From contig JBMNUR010000001.1 of NCBI GenBank assembly GCA_050946395.1, positions 1 through 55,084 of the forward strand: a DNA stretch of 55,084 bases, read 5' to 3'. Shown one piece after another: positions 8,139 through 47,555 of this stretch. Source of the DNA: Peptococcales bacterium (lineage in GTDB: Bacteria > Bacillota > Peptococcia > Peptococcales > BICA1-8). Positions within the stretch are counted from its first letter, which is position 1. Each line of letters starts with the position of its first letter. The notes beneath the pieces are model-generated. The model saw only the letters and a list, made by a program, of their open reading frames with translations. It was not told where the DNA came from and ran no database searches. Position numbers and translations under genes: made by a program.

Positions 8139-8228
8139 GTCATCGCGAGGAGCGATAGCGACGTGGCGATCCCGGTTGTGGAGATAATCGCGTAAAGGAG
8201 GGATTGCTTCACTAACGTTCATAATGAC
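8139..8228. repeat. GTCAT...ATGAC imperfect palindrome (33-mer family)
   Basis: Left arm GTCATCGCGAGGAGCGATAGCGACGTGGCGATC (8139-8171) recurs at 35571-35603 (identical, inverted) and at 22778-22810 (1 mismatch). The right arm is a degenerate inverted copy ending ATAATGAC. Confidence 0.8.
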
Positions 8229-10436: not shown

Positions 10437-10457
10437 ATTTTTTTCACCTCCGAAATT

Positions 10458-10506
10458 AGTTACTAGTGACTAGTAACCAGTGGTCAATAGTCGATAGTTA
10501 GTAAGT
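10458..10506. repeat. in-phase degenerate heptamer array (feoA-feoB spacer)
   Basis: AGTTACT AGTGACT AGTAACC AGTGGTC AATAGTC GATAGTT AGTAAGT. Confidence 0.75.
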
Positions 10507-13475: not shown

Positions 13476-13635
13476 TAGGCTTCTCCTCCCCGGGGAAGCC
13501 TATCTATGGAAACGGCTCCCCACTGCTATTTTCTTTTTGTTTAACTTGCTACTTCGCGGTTTGCCTTCCACAAAATCTCACCTCAGCTTTTATTAATGGC
13601 TAGTGACTAGAGCCCCTATTTGACTTTATCAATTC

Positions 13636-21006: not shown

Positions 21007-22242
21007 TTATTGCGTGCCAACATTAGATATGAGATATGGTACTGCAATGTTCTCCAAGATCTTCCAGGTAACTTCTACTACAACCTTATCTTCCCTATCT
21101 ATGGGGATGATTTGAACCGATTTTTCCAGTACTTTGGCATCATCAGTTAAGAGGCAACTTAAATCTTTTTCCGCCCGCCTAATAGCTTCATGATAAGCTT
21201 CTTCCTGTCCATAAGAATTTACCAAACGTTTTTCCTCCCAAAAGACATTCGTTATTAATTCGACAGGCACCTGGATATTCCTCCACGAAGGAAATGTTTT
21301 TATAGTAGTTTCCAAATCATAATACTTATAGGGGGATTGTGCTTCCCCTTTTAATACAATTATTTCTTTCCCTATTTTTAATAAAACCTGTTCACTTTTC
21401 ATCCCGGTTTTTGTAATTTCCGTTTCTAAAAATTCACAAGAATTTTGCCTTGTAAGTTTTACTATGGCCCGTACTACACCTTTAGCACGTACCAATGTAG
21501 GTTCACCTGCTGGTGTATGTGTGCCATCTTCATTAAGATGTATTTCAGGATAAACTAAACCGGAAATAAGGATTTGCCCTTGTTTAATTTGATCCCCTTC
21601 TTTAACCTGAGGAGTACCCACAAGTACTAACATTTCTTTAATTATTCCTGATTCCTTAGCCACTAAATGAGCATAATTATGGTCATCAGTTTCGGGAATT
21701 AATACTTTTTCTGAAATTTCAATAGTAACTTTTGTTCCTTGAATACTTATACCTACCCAAGCCAGTTTAGGATGGGCATCAAGTAAAGCAGTTTCCAATT
21801 TATCAATATCAATTTTTTTTCTTACTACACCGGGTTTTAATCCCCAGTGACTGGCCAATTCCTTAATCTCACTGGTTGTTAAATCTTCATTACCTTTTAC
21901 ATCAATCACCCAAACAAAAGAGGTTAAAATATATATACTTAAAAAAAACAATAGGCTGCCTAAAGCTAAAGTTTTTCTACGTTTGATAAGTTTAATCTGA
22001 AAAGGAAGGCCCCGTCGATCATAAACTTTTATTCGGCAAGAACAAGCTCTACTTATGCGTGCTAAGGGCCTAAAGGCATATAACCTTATTTTCATACTAA
22101 TTCTATTTTCGCCAATTTGCTTTATATCCCATAAAAAAATTCCCCGGGTTAAAGCCATATTAATTACTTTTTCGGGAAATTGTCCTTCAATTATTATTAT
22201 CAAATAACCCACTAAATAGGAATACCACCGCAATTTTTTCAA
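21007..22242 (-). CDS. yqfD: sporulation protein YqfD
   Basis: 411 aa. ...IIIEGQFPEKVINMALTRGIFLWDI... plus one TM segment is the typical YqfD architecture, and it follows yqfC. Confidence 0.88.
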   Translation of the reverse strand: MKKLRWYSYLVGYLIIIIEGQFPEKVINMALTRGIFLWDIKQIGENRISMKIRLYAFRPLARISRACSCRIKVYDRRGLPFQIKLIKRRKTLALGSLLFFLSIYILTSFVWVIDVKGNEDLTTSEIKELASHWGLKPGVVRKKIDIDKLETALLDAHPKLAWVGISIQGTKVTIEISEKVLIPETDDHNYAHLVAKESGIIKEMLVLVGTPQVKEGDQIKQGQILISGLVYPEIHLNEDGTHTPAGEPTLVRAKGVVRAIVKLTRQNSCEFLETEITKTGMKSEQVLLKIGKEIIVLKGEAQSPYKYYDLETTIKTFPSWRNIQVPVELITNVFWEEKRLVNSYGQEEAYHEAIRRAEKDLSCLLTDDAKVLEKSVQIIPIDREDKVVVEVTWKILENIAVPYLISNVGTQ

Positions 22243-22270
22243 ACCCCCTCTTTAGTGACTGGTGACTAGT

Positions 22271-22307
22271 AATCCGTTTATCCATGTGCCCAGAAGGCCT
22301 CGTGGTT
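22271..22307. repeat. AACCACGG-type module (inverted)
   Basis: AATCCGTTTATCCATGTGCCCAGAAGGCCTCGTGGTT. Confidence 0.65.
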
Positions 22308-22657: not shown

Positions 22658-22741
22658 TAGTTACTAGTGGCTAGTGACTAGTGTTTGGTTTAATTTATTT
22701 GGTTAGGTCGATAGTCGATAGTCAATGGTCTACGGTCTATT
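22658..22741. repeat. two in-phase heptamer arrays
   Basis: 22658-22685 reads TAGTTAC TAGTGGC TAGTGAC TAGTGTT. 22707-22741 reads GTCGATA GTCGATA GTCAATG GTCTACG GTCTATT. Confidence 0.75.
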
Positions 22742-22750
22742 AGCTAACAT

Positions 22751-22810
22751 GTCATTGCAAGCCGATAGGCGTTGCGGGATCGCCACGTCGCTAACGCTCC
22801 TCGCGATGAC
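22751..22810. repeat. GTCAT...ATGAC imperfect palindrome
   Basis: GTCATTGCAAGCCGATAGGCGTTGCGG-GATCGCCACGTCGCTAACGCTCCTCGCGATGAC. The right arm is the 33-mer with 1 mismatch. Confidence 0.8.
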
Positions 22811-23449: not shown

Positions 23450-23515
23450 AAGTGATACAGGTGTGACTTCTAGTCTAGCGAAGCGAAACCTTAACCTCAA
23501 CCTTAACCTTTATTT

Positions 23516-31196: not shown

Positions 31197-33029
31197 TTAC
31201 TTCTTCTCCTCATCAACCTCTTCAAACTCGGCATCGACTACATTATCTTGCGGATTTTGAGCCTGTTCAGCCCCGGGAGTGCCTTGTCCTTGGGGATTGG
31301 CTTGTTCGTACATTTTAGTAGTTAATTTATATAAAACTTCGGTTAATTTTTCTGACTTGGCTTTTATATCTTCTAAATTATCAGTTTCAATAGCTTTTTT
31401 CAATTCATCTTTAGCAGTTTCTACCTCTTCTTTTTCGGCTTGAGATACTTTATCGCCTACTTCTTTTAGGGTTTTTTCCGTTTGATAAACTAAAGAATCA
31501 GCCTGATTTCTAGTTTCTACTTCTTCTTTACGTTTTTTATCCGCTTCAGCATTGGCTTGTGCTTCTTTAACCATTTTATCAATTTCTTCATCAGATAATC
31601 CGCTGGAAGATTGGATGGTAATTTTCTGTTCTTTACCTGTACCTAAATCTTTGGCAGAAACATTAACAATTCCGTTAGCATCTATATCAAACTTAACTTC
31701 GATTTGAGGAACTCCTCTAGGTGCTGGAGGAATACCGGTTAATTGGAAACGACCTAGTGTCTTATTATAGGCAGCCATTTCCCTTTCACCTTGTAGAACA
31801 TGTATTTCTACGGAAGTTTGGTTATCAGCAGCTGTGGAGAAAATCTGACTTTTTGAAGTAGGAATAGTCGTATTACGATCAATTAATCTAGTAAATACTC
31901 CACCCAAAGTTTCGATTCCCAAGGAAAGGGGTGTAACGTCAAGTAACAAAACGTCCTTTACTTCCCCTGCCAAAACACCTGCTTGAATAGCTGCACCAAT
32001 AGCTACACACTCATCAGGGTTTATCCCTTTATGAGGTTCTTTTCCTAAAACTTTCTTAATAGCTTCTTGTACAGCCGGTACCCTAGTTGATCCCCCTACC
32101 AGAATTACTTTATCTATATCCTGAGGTGATAGACCGGAATCTGATAAAGCTCTTCGAGTTGGCTCCATAGTTTTTTCGATTAAATCTGCAATTAATTCCT
32201 CGAATTTTGCCCTGGTTAGATTTAAATCTAAGTGTTGAGGACCATCTTGAGTTGCAGTGATAAATGGCAAATTAATATTTGTAGTAGTAACAGAAGATAA
32301 TTCATGTTTTGCTTTTTCCGCCGCTTCTTTTAAACGTTGTAAAGCCATTTTATCTTTTGCTAAATCAACACCCACTTGCTTTTTGAATTCTTGAATCATC
32401 CAATCTATAATTCGATCATCAAAGTCATCTCCACCTAGACGGTTATTACCGCTCGTTGCCTTAACTTCAAAAACTCCTTCCCCTAATTCAAGGATGGATA
32501 CGTCAAAGGTACCACCACCTAGGTCATAAACCAAAATAGTTTGCTCCCCTTCTTTATCAATACCATATGCTAAAGCTGCTGCAGTTGGTTCGTTGATAAT
32601 TCTAAGTACTTCCAAACCAGCAATTTTACCAGCATCTTTAGTTGCTTGACGCTGACTATCAGTAAAATAGGCAGGAACAGTAATTACCGCTTGGGTAACC
32701 GTCTCCCCTAAATAACTTTCTGCATCAGCTTTTAATTTTTGTAAAACCATAGCGGAAATTTCTTGAGGTGTGTATGCTTTACCTTCAATTGTAGCTTTGT
32801 GGTCAGTACCCATATGTCTTTTAATTGAACTTACCGTACGGTCAGGGTTTGTAACAGCTTGCCGCTTTGCAACCTGCCCTACTAAAAGTTCACCTGTTTT
32901 TGAAAAAGCAATAACTGAAGGTGTTGTTCTATTACCTTCCGCATTTGGTATAACAACAGGCTCTCCGCCTTCCATTACGGAAACACATGAGTTAGTGGTT
33001 CCTAAGTCAATACCTATAACTTTACCCAT
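31197..33029 (-). CDS. dnaK: molecular chaperone DnaK
   Basis: 610 aa. GIDLGTTNS..., DLGGGTFD... ATG follows AGGAGG. Confidence 0.97.
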
Positions 33030-33068: not shown

Positions 33069-33173
33069 GTCGATAGACGATAGTCAATAGTCGATAATCA
33101 GATAACTAGGGACTAGTAACTAATAACATTGACCATAGACTATCGACTATAGACTATTAGCCATTAATAATCA
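33069..33173. repeat. 15-unit in-phase heptamer array in dnaK leader
   Basis: GTCGATA GACGATA GTCAATA GTCGATA ATCAGAT AACTAGG GACTAGT AACTAAT AACATTG ACCATAG ACTATCG ACTATAG ACTATTA GCCATTA ATAATCA. Confidence 0.8.
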
Positions 33174-33341
33174 ATTTATCCGATGACTACCGGCCGCTAT
33201 CTCTCACCTTCTATAAGTGTGAGATAACGGCTGCTACGTCCCTGGACCAGGTTAATTGCCCTTAAAGGCAAGAGAAGGCGCCCTGGAGCGTAAGTTCTTC
33301 TAAGCTTCAGTTGGAGTAAGTATTTCTATTACGCAAACTAG

Positions 33342-33896
33342 CTAAGAATCACTTGATTTTGCCTCATTTTTTGCCACTTTGACCATACTAGGTCTAATTA
33401 CCTTATCTTTATACATATATCCACAGCGCAAGTCTTCAAGAATACTGTTGTCTGGGGCAGATGAATCTTCTACCTGCATAACTGCTTCATGCTTTTGGGG
33501 ATCAAAAGTTTCGCCAAGAGCATTTATTGGCACTAAACCTGCCTGTTCTAATATTTGCATTAACTGCCGGTAAATCATTTCCATCCCGGCTAAAAACTTT
33601 TTCACTTCTTCATTGGGTTCTTTAATATCTAGTGCTCTTTGGAAATTATCTAATACCGGAAGAAGATCAGAAATTAAATTGCTGTTGGCATACTTCATAA
33701 ATTCTTCTTTTTCCATTCTGGTTCTTTTCCGATAATTATCAAAGTCGGCAGCGATCCGCATTAAACGTTGGTTAAGTTCTTGAACTTCTTTTTCTAAGTT
33801 TTCAGTTGGATCCTCAACTTGATTTTCCCCGTTATCTTCAAGGGGCGTATTTTCCTTTTGTAAATCTTCTACTTTTTCATCCATGTTATTTGTCAT
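33342..33896 (-). CDS. grpE: nucleotide exchange factor GrpE
   Basis: 184 aa with a coiled-coil region, ...RIAADFDNYRKRT... and a C-terminal beta domain. Confidence 0.94.
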   Translation of the reverse strand: MTNNMDEKVEDLQKENTPLEDNGENQVEDPTENLEKEVQELNQRLMRIAADFDNYRKRTRMEKEEFMKYANSNLISDLLPVLDNFQRALDIKEPNEEVKKFLAGMEMIYRQLMQILEQAGLVPINALGETFDPQKHEAVMQVEDSSAPDNSILEDLRCGYMYKDKVIRPSMVKVAKNEAKSSDS

Positions 33897-33917: not shown

Positions 33918-35471
33918 TTATTTATTGTTCGGTGCGGATTCAACTTCTTTTTTGCGAATTATAGTATCAATCCTTAAAATAGCTTCCGCAACCTCACCTG
34001 CAGCTTTTAATGCATGTATTTTAACTAAGGTTGGATCAACAACCCCTGATTTAACCATGTCGGAAATGTCCCCTGTATCACAATCAACTCCCAAAGAAAA
34101 ACTTTGCTTTTCCACCTGAGCTTGAGTTACATCGCCTAATTTTTCTAAAGGATTAAAACCCGCGTTAGACATAATCTGAATAAAGGGTCTTTCTAAAGCC
34201 CGAATCACACAATTAATACCAAAAGCAGACATGCCTTTCAAGTTTTTCTTCAGTTCTTCTACTTCTCTAGCTACCGTTAATTCTATAGAACCTGCACCAG
34301 GAACAATACCACCTTTGATGGCAGCCTGAACACTACTTGCGGCATCTTTAGCAATACGTTCCCTTTCACCTACTACTTCTTCAGTAGAAGCACTCACTAG
34401 GATTGTTGCCGTGGGTTTACCCTTGCCACCTACGACACGGATATGTTCAAGTTTTTCATTTTCATAAACACATTTAGATTGTCCTAGGTATTTGGCAATT
34501 TCCTCAGGTTCTTTCTTTAACCCTGTCCTTTTAAGCATCCGGGCACCAGTATGTTCAGCGATATTCCGTAATTCTTTATTGGCTACCCTTTGCACAACCA
34601 TAATCCCTGCATCAGAAAATATTTCTTCTGCTAGATCATCGACTCCCCGATCTACAAGGACTACATTAACTCCTAGCTCAACAAGTTTAAATAGATTTGT
34701 CCTAAATTCTTCTCTTAGTGTCAGATAACGTGAAAACCCGGCTTCCGTAGCCAAAGCTTCATCATCTAATTCCTCGGGTTCTAAAGCATCATCAACAAGC
34801 AAGATTTTTACTTTTCCGGTAAGTTCTCGGGGCATTTGTTTGTTCATTCGTTCTTTGTTCACTAAAACTCCCTGAAAAACTTCATTGTCAGCACCCTCTA
34901 TAGCTTTAATAATTTCCGAAAATTTAAAGGTAGGATCTTGAAGCTTTTCTGTACCAATAGCCTTAGCCGCCTCCACCACAAGTCTGGCAATATCCCTATT
35001 CTCTCGTCCGGCAATCAAAGCTATATTGTAAAGAAGAGGGTCATCTAGGCCCTGTATCTCTTGACTCTTGTCTTGAATACTTTGAATAGCTTTATTAACA
35101 CCTTGGCGTAGCCCTTCAATAACCCGGGCAACCGGTACCCCCTGTAGCACTTGGGTAAATCCTTCGTTAACCATTTCCCCGGCCATTAAAGTTGCGGTAG
35201 TAGTCCCATCTCCAATTTCATCTTGTTGGGCTTTGGCAATGTTTATTAACATTTTAGCAGCAGGATGATTTACTTCCATTAGGTTTAAGATTGTAACCCC
35301 ATCATTGGTAATTACTACGTCGCCAAATTGGTCAACAAGCATTGTATCCAAACCCTTAGGGCCAATAGTACCTTGTACTGCACCGGCAATAGCCCGCACA
35401 GCATTAACATTTGTTTCTAAGGCGCTATACTTGGTATCAACTTCAGAATTTGTTACACTTTTTACATTCAA
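33918..35471 (-). CDS. thermosome/TCP-1-type (group II-like, bacterial group III) chaperonin
   Basis: 517 aa with [10 protein letters not shown] and [14 protein letters not shown] motifs of the Cpn60/TCP-1 family. TTG start lies 9 nt after AGGAGG, and the gene ends 21 nt upstream of grpE. Confidence 0.85.
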
Positions 35472-35490: not shown

Positions 35491-35574
35491 TAGTGGCTAG
35501 TTTCTAGTGGCCAGTTTCTAGACTTTCGGGCTAATTTATCGGGTCGGGTCTATAGTCTATGGTCTATCTGGATC
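35491..35574. repeat. 12-unit in-phase heptamer array in chaperonin leader
   Basis: TAGTGGC TAGTTTC TAGTGGC CAGTTTC TAGACTT TCGGGCT AATTTAT CGGGTCG GGTCTAT AGTCTAT GGTCTAT CTGGATC. Confidence 0.75.
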
Positions 35575-35645
35575 GCCACGTCGCTATCGCTCCTCGCGAT
35601 GACAGGGAGCAGGAACCGCTCCCTGTCATTTAGCGCAGCGAAATC
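35571..35645. repeat. 33-mer palindrome family, tail-to-tail with central perfect hairpin
   Basis: GATCGCCACGTCGCTATCGCTCCTCGCGATGAC is the exact inverse of 8139-8171. It is followed by the ATGACAGGGAGC-aggaacc-GCTCCCTGTCAT 12-bp hairpin and the degenerate arm GTCATTTAGCGCAGCGAAATC. Confidence 0.8.
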
Positions 35646-41754: not shown

Positions 41755-41850
41755 TTTCGTCAATTCGTCAGTCGTGTATTCGTTTATTTGTCAATTCGTC
41801 GATTCGCCAAAGGTCTATTCTTTTATTCGTTTATTTACGAACCAACGAAA
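41755..41850. repeat. in-phase degenerate octamer array in murJ leader
   Basis: TTTCGTCA ATTCGTCA GTCGTGTA TTCGTTTA TTTGTCAA TTCGTCGA TTCGCCAA, followed by 5 more degenerate units. Confidence 0.7.
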
Positions 41851-44766: not shown

Positions 44767-45060
44767 GCCTGTTGACAAAGTTATTCATAACAAAATCTAT
44801 ATAATTTTATCATTAGTGAAGCATTTGGCGAGTTTAGATAAAAAGAACGCAGACGGCTGAAGACCAGAATTAGCAACTGTTTGACCCGACACTTAATTGC
44901 AATAATTAACTCTGCATCTTGAATAAAGAATAGTATGTATCATGAGTTTCCAATTAAGTGTCGGGGAGTTTTGCTAATTCCTGAAGCCGTTGAGTTCATT
45001 CACAATAAAATTGTCTGAGCCAGCGTAACGTTGATAAATATGGAGTTTGTCTACATTCTG
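44767..45060 (-). repeat. 294-bp imperfect-palindrome element, copy B (inverted relative to copy A)
   Basis: The reverse complement matches 20749-20968. The 9-nt apex ACCTTCGGT of copy A is replaced by an 81-bp hairpin (44885-44965). It is flanked by TGCGTCATAAAT(G/A)ACGCATAAT on both sides. Confidence 0.8.
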
Positions 45061-46147: not shown

Positions 46148-46196
46148 GCTATAGTACTGACAACTAGGACTATCGACTATTGACCATTGACTTAAT
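46148..46196. repeat. in-phase heptamer array in holA leader
   Basis: GCTATAG TACTGAC AACTAGG ACTATCG ACTATTG ACCATTG ACTTAAT. Confidence 0.7.
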
Positions 46197-47413: not shown

Positions 47414-47555
47414 CTCATGAAGCTACTAATGTTTTCAACATTATAACATAATCCTTTCCTATATTGATTAAGTAGTTTTTGTAAGAAAAGAAACAGTATA
47501 ACATTAGGTTTACTTTGGGGTCAGGTCGATGGTCAATAGATAAGACTTTTCCTAA

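Follow-up and report, generated by a model that had tools for sequence, protein, structure and literature searches.

Tandem heptamer arrays in gene leaders of a Peptococcales bacterium and their association with PF05635 stem-loop cassettes

The window analysed here is a stretch of 55,084 nt (positions 1 to 55,084, forward strand, of contig JBMNUR010000001.1) from the Peptococcales bacterium assembly GCA_050946395.1, which we call G000 (3.36 Mb in 463 contigs, 37.8% G+C, 94.6% complete); positions without a contig label refer to the window, and C-numbers denote other contigs of G000. Our subject is a set of tandem arrays of 7-nt units in gene leaders, above all the array at 33069-33173, and the relation of such arrays to genes of the PF05635 family. 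The array occupies part of the spacer that separates grpE (33342-33896) from dnaK (31197-33029), two minus-strand genes confirmed by NCBIfam. Identity at a lag of 7 nt is 0.64 across the array, as compared to 0.28±0.04 in mononucleotide shuffles (z 8.5), which are the reference for all lag-7 z scores below; the centre of the array (33101-33130) gives 0.57 (z 3.2). Tandem Repeats Finder (TRF) reports four copies of GTCGATA at 33069-33096 and 3.9 copies of GACTATA at 33131-33157. The ends of the array are mutually reverse complementary, and the sense RNA folds as one long imperfect hairpin, with -34.6 kcal/mol for a 130-nt segment (z -3.97, none of 200 shuffles being equally stable) and z -2.7 for a 166-nt segment. 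A Shine-Dalgarno sequence (AGGAGG) and the dnaK start at 33029 follow ∼40 nt 3' of the array's 3' arm. The hairpin is also present in two relatives, G008 (z -6.9) and G003 (z -3.95).

A sequence-only reading of this DNA had described in-phase runs of 7-nt units in the leaders of minus-strand genes, with the dnaK run doubling as an imperfect palindrome, and both descriptions hold: the units print in register, and TRF finds further period-7 arrays at 10457-10482, 22658-22683, 22707-22723, 35548-35567, and 46168-46192, together with a period of 14 at 35491-35521. The arrays upstream of yqfC have a lag-7 z of 5.9. For the chaperonin leader, the same reading had counted 12 units; periodic arrays do occur there, but they are two separate ones, and the intervening 28 nt (35519-35546) give z -0.1.

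These arrays are part of a genome-wide excess. In the ∼493 kb of G000 outside long open reading frames (ORFs), compared to dinucleotide shuffles, there are 73 arrays of period 6 (8 in shuffles), 149 of period 7 (25), 183 of period 8 (27), 30 of period 14 (5), and 31 of period 16 (3). For 6-, 7-, and 8-nt units, intergenic DNA has 6-9 times as many arrays as the shuffles, and period 5 is not enriched. The period-7 comparison with shuffled intergenic DNA that had been proposed thus came out positive, but the treatment of the phenomenon as one of period 7 only was too narrow. The idea that a small vocabulary is reused at unrelated loci is borne out as well, with unit families at 8-29 loci each (29 arrays of ACTAGTC, 15 of ACTAGCC, 12 of ACTATAG, 8 of ACTATCG); AATAGACG forms 24 arrays and AACCTT 34. 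Individual arrays are short and degenerate, with 2 to ∼12 units. We rejected inverted pairing as a general architecture in G000, since an inverted partner exists for only 8 of the 165 arrays (2-3 in controls), the dnaK palindrome being an exception. We also rejected the arrays as the cause of the fragmentation of the G000 assembly, with 7 of 926 contig ends touching an array.

Between co-directional genes, 25 CACTAGY arrays are in mRNA sense and 3 are antisense (p 3e-5), although no array lies between lagging-strand genes, and transcription strand is therefore not separable from replication strand in this bias. The array ends 13-50 nt from the start codon in 21 of the 25, while the distance to the upstream stop codon spans 6-468 nt (Kolmogorov-Smirnov p 4e-4). 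The common layout is (NACTAGY)n-CACTAA-(0-12 nt)-AGGAGG/GAGGTG-start. The downstream genes include those for Mur ligase, FabF, SerS, RNase PH, AtpD, SHMT, FtsY, and the chaperonin, as well as feoB and yqfC, in agreement with the earlier claim that the targets are housekeeping genes. GACYATN arrays lie further upstream, often connected to the CACTAGY array by the linker GACCCAATAAATTAACCC. Because a conserved linker, GACCCAATAAATTAACCCAAAAA and its variants (22742-22765, 35522-35546, 47500-47520, and many other G000 leaders), joins the two, GACYATN and CACTAGY arrays travel as one composite module of ∼70-90 nt. Hexamer arrays, for their part, lie directly 3' of upstream stop codons. The coding strand of the hrcA operon has a single strong sigma-A-like promoter, located 5' of hrcA, by a palindrome of the CIRCE type (controlling inverted repeat of chaperone expression) seen in a spacer alignment, and the spacers show no terminator-like site and no promoter excess, which suggests that the arrays would be transcribed within the hrcA-chaperonin-grpE-dnaK mRNA.

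What the sequence-only reading missed is a physical link between arrays and PF05635 genes. Most of the ∼40 PF05635 genes that we inspected are bracketed by inverted tandem arrays. G000 has two intact copies (contig C40) and one remnant (C49), next to which lie octamer (CACACTTA) and nonamer (CTACAGNNN) arrays that have inverted partners. For comparison, we used eight sister genomes from other genera of the same family and 45 genomes from the order's three other families; dnaK nucleotide identity between G000 and its closest relatives is about 78-80%. PF05635 occurs in seven of the eight sister genomes and in three of the 45 others. In relatives, 27 copies were scored: a TRF array lies no more than 220 nt away from 22 of them, and 15 are accompanied in this way on both sides; the genes of Brevundimonas, Dialister, Chamaesiphon, and a metagenome-assembled genome of Bacteroidota are likewise bracketed by arrays. 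Further arm types comprise AAGGTT plus TTCGCTTCGCTAG, GTGGAAAA, CGTGGGCG, GATGCATC, and others, which is the vocabulary of the other repeats in the window. Of the heptamer arrays in G000, 57% have a unit found in the cassette arms of relatives, as compared to 17% for a reversed-unit control. In minimum free energy (MFE) folds of the cassettes, the 5' arm pairs with the 3' arm across the ORF, with 17-68 pairs, and G000 encodes RNase III. Neither a reverse transcriptase nor a template/variable repeat pair was found beside the PF05635 copies inspected, and a retro-mechanism that makes the arms is pure speculation. Our literature search found no paper connecting heptamer arrays, including STRRs (short tandemly repeated repetitive sequences), with PF05635.

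At two orthologous sites, genomes differ in whether the cassette is full, decayed, or without its gene. One is helix P12 of RNase P RNA, where a PF05635 cassette lies inside the RNA gene in four sister genomes (G001, G006, G007, and G002) and is decayed in a fifth (G005). With Infernal, the full class-A model aligned across a span of 767-773 nt in G001, G006, and G007, while G002 matches the model only partly. G000 itself contributes a heptamer hairpin on contig C200, whose CTAGAGG units are one mismatch from the TTAGAGG/TCAGAGG arms of the relatives. This series (17, 72, 149, and 430 nt, with homologous arms) offers the strongest indication that heptamer hairpins without a gene derive from cassettes. 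We looked for an apex core common to the hairpins of dnaK and P12, but the motif matched only ordinary CACTAGY arrays. As side observations, G000 has two versions of rnpB that are ∼98% identical, C3:30742-31096 with a native 17-nt P12 tip and C200:4647-5056 with the 72-nt heptamer hairpin, which may reflect two strains in the bin; and in G007, a match to domains D1-D4 of a group II intron (L209 1104-1218) lies directly 3' of the cassette-bearing RNase P RNA gene.

The other site is the atpG-atpD spacer. In G001, G004, G005, and G007, it holds an intact PF05635 gene, with a (GTGACTA)n arm 3' of the atpG stop codon and a (TAGTCAC)n-CACTAA arm touching the atpD Shine-Dalgarno sequence. In G000, only the C-terminal last third of the gene remains (C49:2976-3086), together with the 3' arm by the atpD ribosome-binding site. 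Since relatives hold the full cassette at the same site, the atpD leader array of G000 is accounted for outright.

Within the order, the arrays are specific to the family. A 20-nt CACTAGY pattern, with at most one mismatch allowed, is found in seven of the eight sister genomes (up to 257 windows) and in none of the 45 genomes of the other families, with 0-4 matches for the reversed control. By TRF, the family has 8-30 complex 6-8-nt arrays per 10 kb of intergenic DNA; in the other families the density is 0-15 per 10 kb, made up of A/T-rich low-complexity units only. Strand and position biases also recur in sister genera (18 sense and 4 antisense CACTAGY arrays, with the same start-codon placement as in G000). 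Unit numbers were compared across orthologous leaders, as had been suggested: the grpE-dnaK spacer contains GTCTATA/GTCGATA units in G008, G004, and G003, in differing numbers, and is plain elsewhere (14-72 nt, and 14-21 nt outside the family). In orthologous leaders, the array stays by the Shine-Dalgarno sequence while unit type and copy number change; the CACTAGY array at yqfC is kept at the same position in G008 and G004, arrays are present in the orthologous chaperonin leaders of G007, G005, and G004, and a 4-unit array in the dnaJ leader keeps its length across three genera. Many CACTAGY arrays of G004 and G008 are found no more than 30 bases from a contig end; as long arrays break these assemblies, array counts in the sister genomes are underestimated.

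Beyond the order, and with one genome taken per species, CACTAGY arrays of at least four units occur, among the matches listed, in cyanobacteria, Bacteroidota, Planctomycetota, Gemmatimonadota, Acidobacteriota, Chloroflexota, Alpha- and Gammaproteobacteria, Negativicutes, and others, the unit grading into CACCAGT, CCCTAGT, CCCTAAT, and CCCCAGT. Five such genomes of other lineages have 34-384 CACTAGY windows each, with none for the reversed control. Within the phylum, only 8 genomes of a 400-genome sample have the pattern. The arrays of Dialister are mostly antisense and directly 3' of stop codons, and array placement is therefore lineage-specific. Analysis of strand and position across phyla is confounded by arrays supplying the stop codons that terminate spurious ORFs in high-GC genomes. 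The sequence-only reading knew of no equivalent description in Firmicutes, and our literature search likewise found none of these units, of their 14-mers, or of such arrays in Peptococcaceae. Features of the window and of the P12 series are collected in Table 1.

Table 1. Repeat features of the window, states of RNase P RNA helix P12, and RNase P RNA loci of relatives
Location	Strand	Feature	Units, sequence, or length	Context and support
33131-33166	-	dnaK-leader hairpin, 5' arm (mRNA sense)	sense (UAGUCUA/UAGUCGA/UGGUCAA)n; plus strand GACTATA-type	lag-7 0.76, z 6.3; MFE-paired with 33069-33100
33101-33130	-	dnaK-leader hairpin, apex	degenerate CTAGT-type units (UUACUAGUCCCUAGUU)	forms small terminal hairpin; z 3.2 and fold
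33069-33100	-	dnaK-leader hairpin, 3' arm	sense (UAUCGAC/UAUUGAC/UAUCGUC)n	TRF unit GTCGATA; z 6.2
10457-10506	-	feoA-feoB spacer array	GACTATY-type units, then CACTAGY array, then ACTAAT	followed by feoB Shine-Dalgarno; 25 nt to start; z 6.1
22658-22685	-	CACTAGY array 5' of yqfC	CACTAGY	directly 5' of conserved sigma-E-like promoter motif (identified by eye)
22707-22741	-	GACYATN (F2) array	GACYATN	connected to CACTAGY array by linker ...AACCAAATAAATTAAACC..., found in many leaders
35491-35521	-	chaperonin-leader array	CCACTAG/AACTAGA	touches Shine-Dalgarno of thermosome-like chaperonin gene; 24 nt to start; unstructured, fold z -0.14
35547-35567	-	chaperonin-leader array	GACCATA/GACTATA	28 non-periodic nt from array 35491-35521
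46148-46196	-	holA-leader array	TAGTCGA/TAGTCAA type	z 3.3; AATAGTCGATAGTCC kept in G008
13600-13620	-	short fragment, mgtE leader	CACTAGY	z 2.5
22253-22272	-	short array	TACTAGTCACCAGTCACTA	touches Shine-Dalgarno of gene 21007-22242; z 4.5
47521-47548	-	short fragment 3' of comEC stop	GACCATC-type	z 3.1
23487-23510	-	hexamer array	(AAGGTT)n, then TTCGCTTCGCTAGA	arm type matches that bracketing PF05635 genes in G006, G004, G008
41756-41810	-	octamer array	sense TTGACGAA-type	period-8 sister class
33218-33357	-	dispersed repeat, rest of grpE-dnaK spacer	∼140 nt	overlaps grpE stop; outside the array
G011, G008, G004, G000 contig C3		P12, native tip	10-20 nt	
G003		P12, unrelated hairpin	48 nt	
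G001, G006, G007		P12, full cassette	429-435 nt	
G005		P12, arms and truncated ORF	149 nt	
G000 contig C200		P12, gene-less heptamer hairpin	72 nt	
L207 267-1033		RNase P RNA		G001
L209 266-1033		RNase P RNA		G007
L211 261-1033		RNase P RNA		G006
L210		RNase P RNA		G002
L222		RNase P RNA		G005
L218		RNase P RNA		G003

Several neighbours of the arrays deserve mention. Between hrcA and grpE, under the hrcA promoter, lies a thermosome/CCT-like (group II-type) chaperonin gene (33918-35471) that stands in for a GroEL-type gene and is kept in every sister genome examined. The grpE-dnaK spacer of G000 is 312 nt long because of the dispersed repeat at 33218-33357, which is GC-richer and has at least 12 other copies in G000 (on C143, C73, C75, C66, C99, C124, C431, C365, C4, C19, and C77), some in tandem with a 45-nt period; a contig from another sequencing run ends precisely at its edge. 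No Rfam family matches the spacer, this repeat included. A window hairpin at 44885-44965, the apex of a 295-bp element (arms CCCGACACTTAATTG...CAATTAAGTGTCGGG), shares arm sequence with the 48-nt P12 hairpin of G003 (CGACACTTAATTACT...AGTAATTAAGTGTCG), a likeness that suggests that this hairpin may itself be a helix-tip insert. A family of 33-mer palindromes, GTCATCGCGAGGAGCGATAGCGACGTGGCGATCC, is present at 8139-8171, 22778-22810, and 35571-35603, and also directly 5' of a PF05635 gene in G001 (L215); the related motif AAGATTTC(TC)GCTTCGCT..AATGAC flanks heptamer arrays of Dialister (L054, L095). To judge from such sequences, other repeat classes of G000 may be cassette arms too.

We assign the arrays to the class of STRRs and long simple sequence repeats (SSRs), and we lean towards reading them, in this family, as arms of small PF05635 stem-loop inserts resembling the intervening sequences (IVSs) of 23S rRNA, and as relics of such inserts. 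That the array class is tied in some way to PF05635 cassettes we consider probable; for the dnaK array specifically, we propose the tie only tentatively. A complete insert consists of a PF05635 gene, encoding an S23p/Avd-like four-helix bundle, between two inverted arms, each of 3-17 tandem copies of a 6-9-nt unit whose sequence varies among insert lineages; it is placed co-oriented within operons or at a helix tip of a structural RNA. Internal deletion would leave either a gene-less two-arm hairpin, which is the state of the dnaK leader (33069-33166), or a solo 3' arm by the ribosome-binding site of the next gene, as in most CACTAGY arrays. No ORF lies in the dnaK-leader element, which could hence only be a gene-less derivative of a cassette, and its descent from a PF05635 insert is putative. 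Unit number would be set by slippage, and the arm stems may be cut by RNase III and so divide the transcript into segments, as happens in 23S IVSs.

Several observations weigh against this proposal. We found no PF05635 gene with arms of the dnaK type (GTCGATA/GACTATA), and none in any grpE-dnaK spacer examined. With ∼430 arrays for two intact PF05635 genes and one remnant, most arrays of G000 are orphans, and few of them, as given above, have an inverted partner. Arrays and gene do not always go together: G003 has arrays without PF05635, and G002 has the gene but few arrays. In the phylum, PF05635 is found in all five CACTAGY-positive genomes but also in four of five pattern-negative ones, and the gene is therefore no marker of CACTAGY arrays; within the order, the correlation of arrays with PF05635 is that of a single clade. 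The data equally permit that arrays came first and that the gene homed into array hairpins later. Finally, plain relics should keep the 5' arm as often as the 3' arm, such that the 25:3 sense bias needs added selection or biased deletion.

The last two points lead to the rivals, of which the strongest, although we think it unlikely, is that the arrays are ordinary long SSRs born locally by slippage, with PF05635 secondary, homing into or retained in array hairpins, and with placement reflecting where repeats are tolerated. Among the long SSRs of many prokaryotes, heptamers rank first, and slippage has been proposed as their cause (Mrazek 2007, as cited in PMC4679880 and PMC4692102). Turnover is indeed fast: in the congeneric pair G004 and G008, identity is 89% for coding DNA and 0.99 for the CIRCE spacer, but repeat-bearing spacers have a median identical fraction of 0.49. 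The change of unit type and copy number among orthologous leaders, the dispensability of arrays implied by the plain spacers outside the family, the large surplus of arrays over PF05635 genes, and the pattern-negative genomes that have the gene all point the same way. Yet genomes from distant phyla each carry one and the same unit at dozens of loci, and the reversed control gives zero; the strand bias (25:3, and 18:4 in relatives), the tight start-codon distance and position by the ribosome-binding site, and the length-conserved dnaJ-leader array are not expected from local slippage, nor are the homologous arms that run from full cassette to relic at P12 and atpG-atpD. If escape from mismatch repair plus slippage were everything, period 5 should be enriched too. 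The pure slippage product that the sequence-only reading had listed as an option thus leaves the main regularities unexplained. We regard it as improbable that the arrays are RNA-level leader modules, in which CACUAGY beside the Shine-Dalgarno sequence would offer an RNA-binding protein (of the cold-shock-domain, S1, or KH type) a single-stranded platform or would work as a translational element. Such a role would fit the sense orientation and start-codon placement, also in sister genera, the retention of an array by the Shine-Dalgarno sequence in orthologues despite unit change, the conserved dnaJ leader, and a precedent in the TAACTGA repeats of Beggiatoaceae (PMC4679880); moreover, the 5-mers most enriched at -40..-10 include ACTAA, CACTA, and GTCAC even in leaders without arrays. 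However, predicted accessibility of the Shine-Dalgarno sequence is unaffected by shuffling, replacing, or deleting the array (0.456 native, 0.447-0.467 for the controls, p>0.36, 56 leaders), which gives no in-silico support to the suggested leader spacer, or unstructured insulator, that keeps this sequence open. The antisense arrays after stop codons in Dialister and the yqfC array, which is 5' of a promoter-like motif rather than in a short 5' untranslated region, also speak against a leader module, and no binding protein was identified.

One candidate protein was HutP, whose site is UAG every 7 nt. It was rejected as the reader of UAG-N4 repeats: PF09021 is found across the order (46 of 54 genomes), every array-free family included, and does not co-vary with the arrays. 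PF09021 was not detected in G000 itself (94.6% complete). Far less probable still are DNA-level sites (tandem operators, nucleoid-protein sites, or iterons) or phase-variation repeats. The units do consist of a 4-6-bp palindrome plus 1-3 bases (ACTAGT+C, CTATAG+A, TCGA), as for dimeric DNA binders, and the tandem 8-bp met boxes are a precedent for repeated operators; but a strong strand bias is unexpected for palindromic sites, and the arrays lie inside operons, 3' of the single CIRCE/sigma-A promoter, with no promoter excess. Phase variation, as at contingency loci, is at odds with housekeeping rather than surface or variable targets, with arrays that are short, degenerate, and of at most ∼12 units, and with the identity of the array spacer in G000 and in a contig from a second sequencing run, the sole second copy found.

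The stem-loop cassette proposal gains from comparison with known systems. Tandem heptamers have been recorded in cyanobacteria since 1990, and we know of no agreed origin or function for heptamer repeats. In cyanobacterial RNase P RNA, STRRs sit at P12, and CCCCAGT, into which CACTAGT arrays of other genomes grade, is the STRR1 unit. The STRR analogy drawn by the sequence-only reading therefore deserves to be retained: G000 shares with STRRs the tandem 7-nt units, the many dispersed intergenic loci with few unit types, hairpins between operon genes (a minority of its arrays), and a heptamer hairpin in P12. STRRs have been described as 7-bp repeats that form intergenic hairpins and might act in transcript stability or translational coupling (PMC2670836), and the title of Vioque 1997, as cited in PMC2858038, places them inside the cyanobacterial RNase P RNA gene. 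The host here, in contrast, is a spore-forming anaerobic Firmicute (with T-box, yqfC, and the hrcA/CIRCE operon) and not a heterocystous cyanobacterium; its units are CACTAGY and GACYATN rather than the canonical CCCCAGT, hexamer and octamer classes are equally enriched, arrays have 2-12 units, and there is the physical tie to PF05635 cassettes.

In 23S rRNA IVSs, terminal inverted repeats form a stem with an S23p ORF in the loop, RNase III cleaves mid-stem, and distribution is sporadic (PMC4990558). The cassettes described here fold as do the IVSs of Coxiella burnetii and Leptospira, with terminal inverted repeats giving a long stem and a PF05635 ORF in the loop; they too occupy the helix tip of a structural RNA, in this case P12, and their sporadic distribution likewise suggests horizontal spread. 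They differ in that the arms are tandem 6-9-nt repeats instead of a unique stem, that most copies are gene-less, and that they reside in mRNA spacers (atpG-atpD) and in RNase P RNA. Decayed or gene-less copies and full copies at one site were found at P12 and atpG-atpD, not at grpE-dnaK. The TAACTGA repeats of marine Beggiatoaceae, Cyanobacteria, and Bacteroidetes lie in forward orientation directly 5' of start codons and are patchy across phyla, with no known transfer mechanism (MacGregor 2015, PMC4679880). Sense orientation 5' of the starts of unrelated genes and patchy spread across phyla are common to both, and the TCACTGA runs of G007 are one mismatch from TAACTGA; in G000, however, the unit is CACTAGY and a canonical Shine-Dalgarno sequence (AGGAGG/GAGGTG) is kept, whereas the BOGUAY repeats replace it, and PMC4679880 makes no link to a gene cassette. 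The G-rich GGGAATC/GGGGAYT arrays of Xanthomonas and Nostoc include some inverted pairs and vary between close relatives (Rehm 2015, PMC4692102). Along with other long SSRs (Mrazek et al. 2007), they share with ours an intergenic heptamer excess, variation in length and sequence, and some inverted pairs; our units, by contrast, are not G-rich and have no G-quadruplex potential, and periods 6 and 8 are enriched like period 7. PF05635 proteins, finally, resemble Avd of diversity-generating retroelements in sequence and structure (PMC10053308).

A wider reading, which we offer as a conjecture that is more doubtful than the family-level proposal, is that STRR-type heptamers generally (CCCCAGT, TAACTGA, CACTAGY, and their 6-9-nt cousins) could be the footprint of one widespread, horizontally moving selfish stem-loop element built on an Avd-like PF05635 protein. 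Such an element would insert into the hairpin tips of RNAs and genes (23S rRNA, RNase P RNA, operon spacers), build or extend its own arms, and decay to gene-less hairpins and solo arms that hosts tolerate or co-opt by ribosome-binding sites; if it exists, it would account for the unexplained heptamer excess in bacterial genomes. If the arrays are arms and relics of cassettes, much “junk” intergenic structure in many phyla would have a single testable source, the 23S rRNA IVS would be one target of an element that inserts into RNase P RNA and operon mRNAs as well, and the Avd-like family would gain a candidate role outside diversity-generating retroelements. For this family of bacteria, the arrays matter in practice too: they break the assemblies of relatives, yield spurious ORFs, and may set mRNA processing sites in core operons (hrcA-grpE-dnaK, atp).

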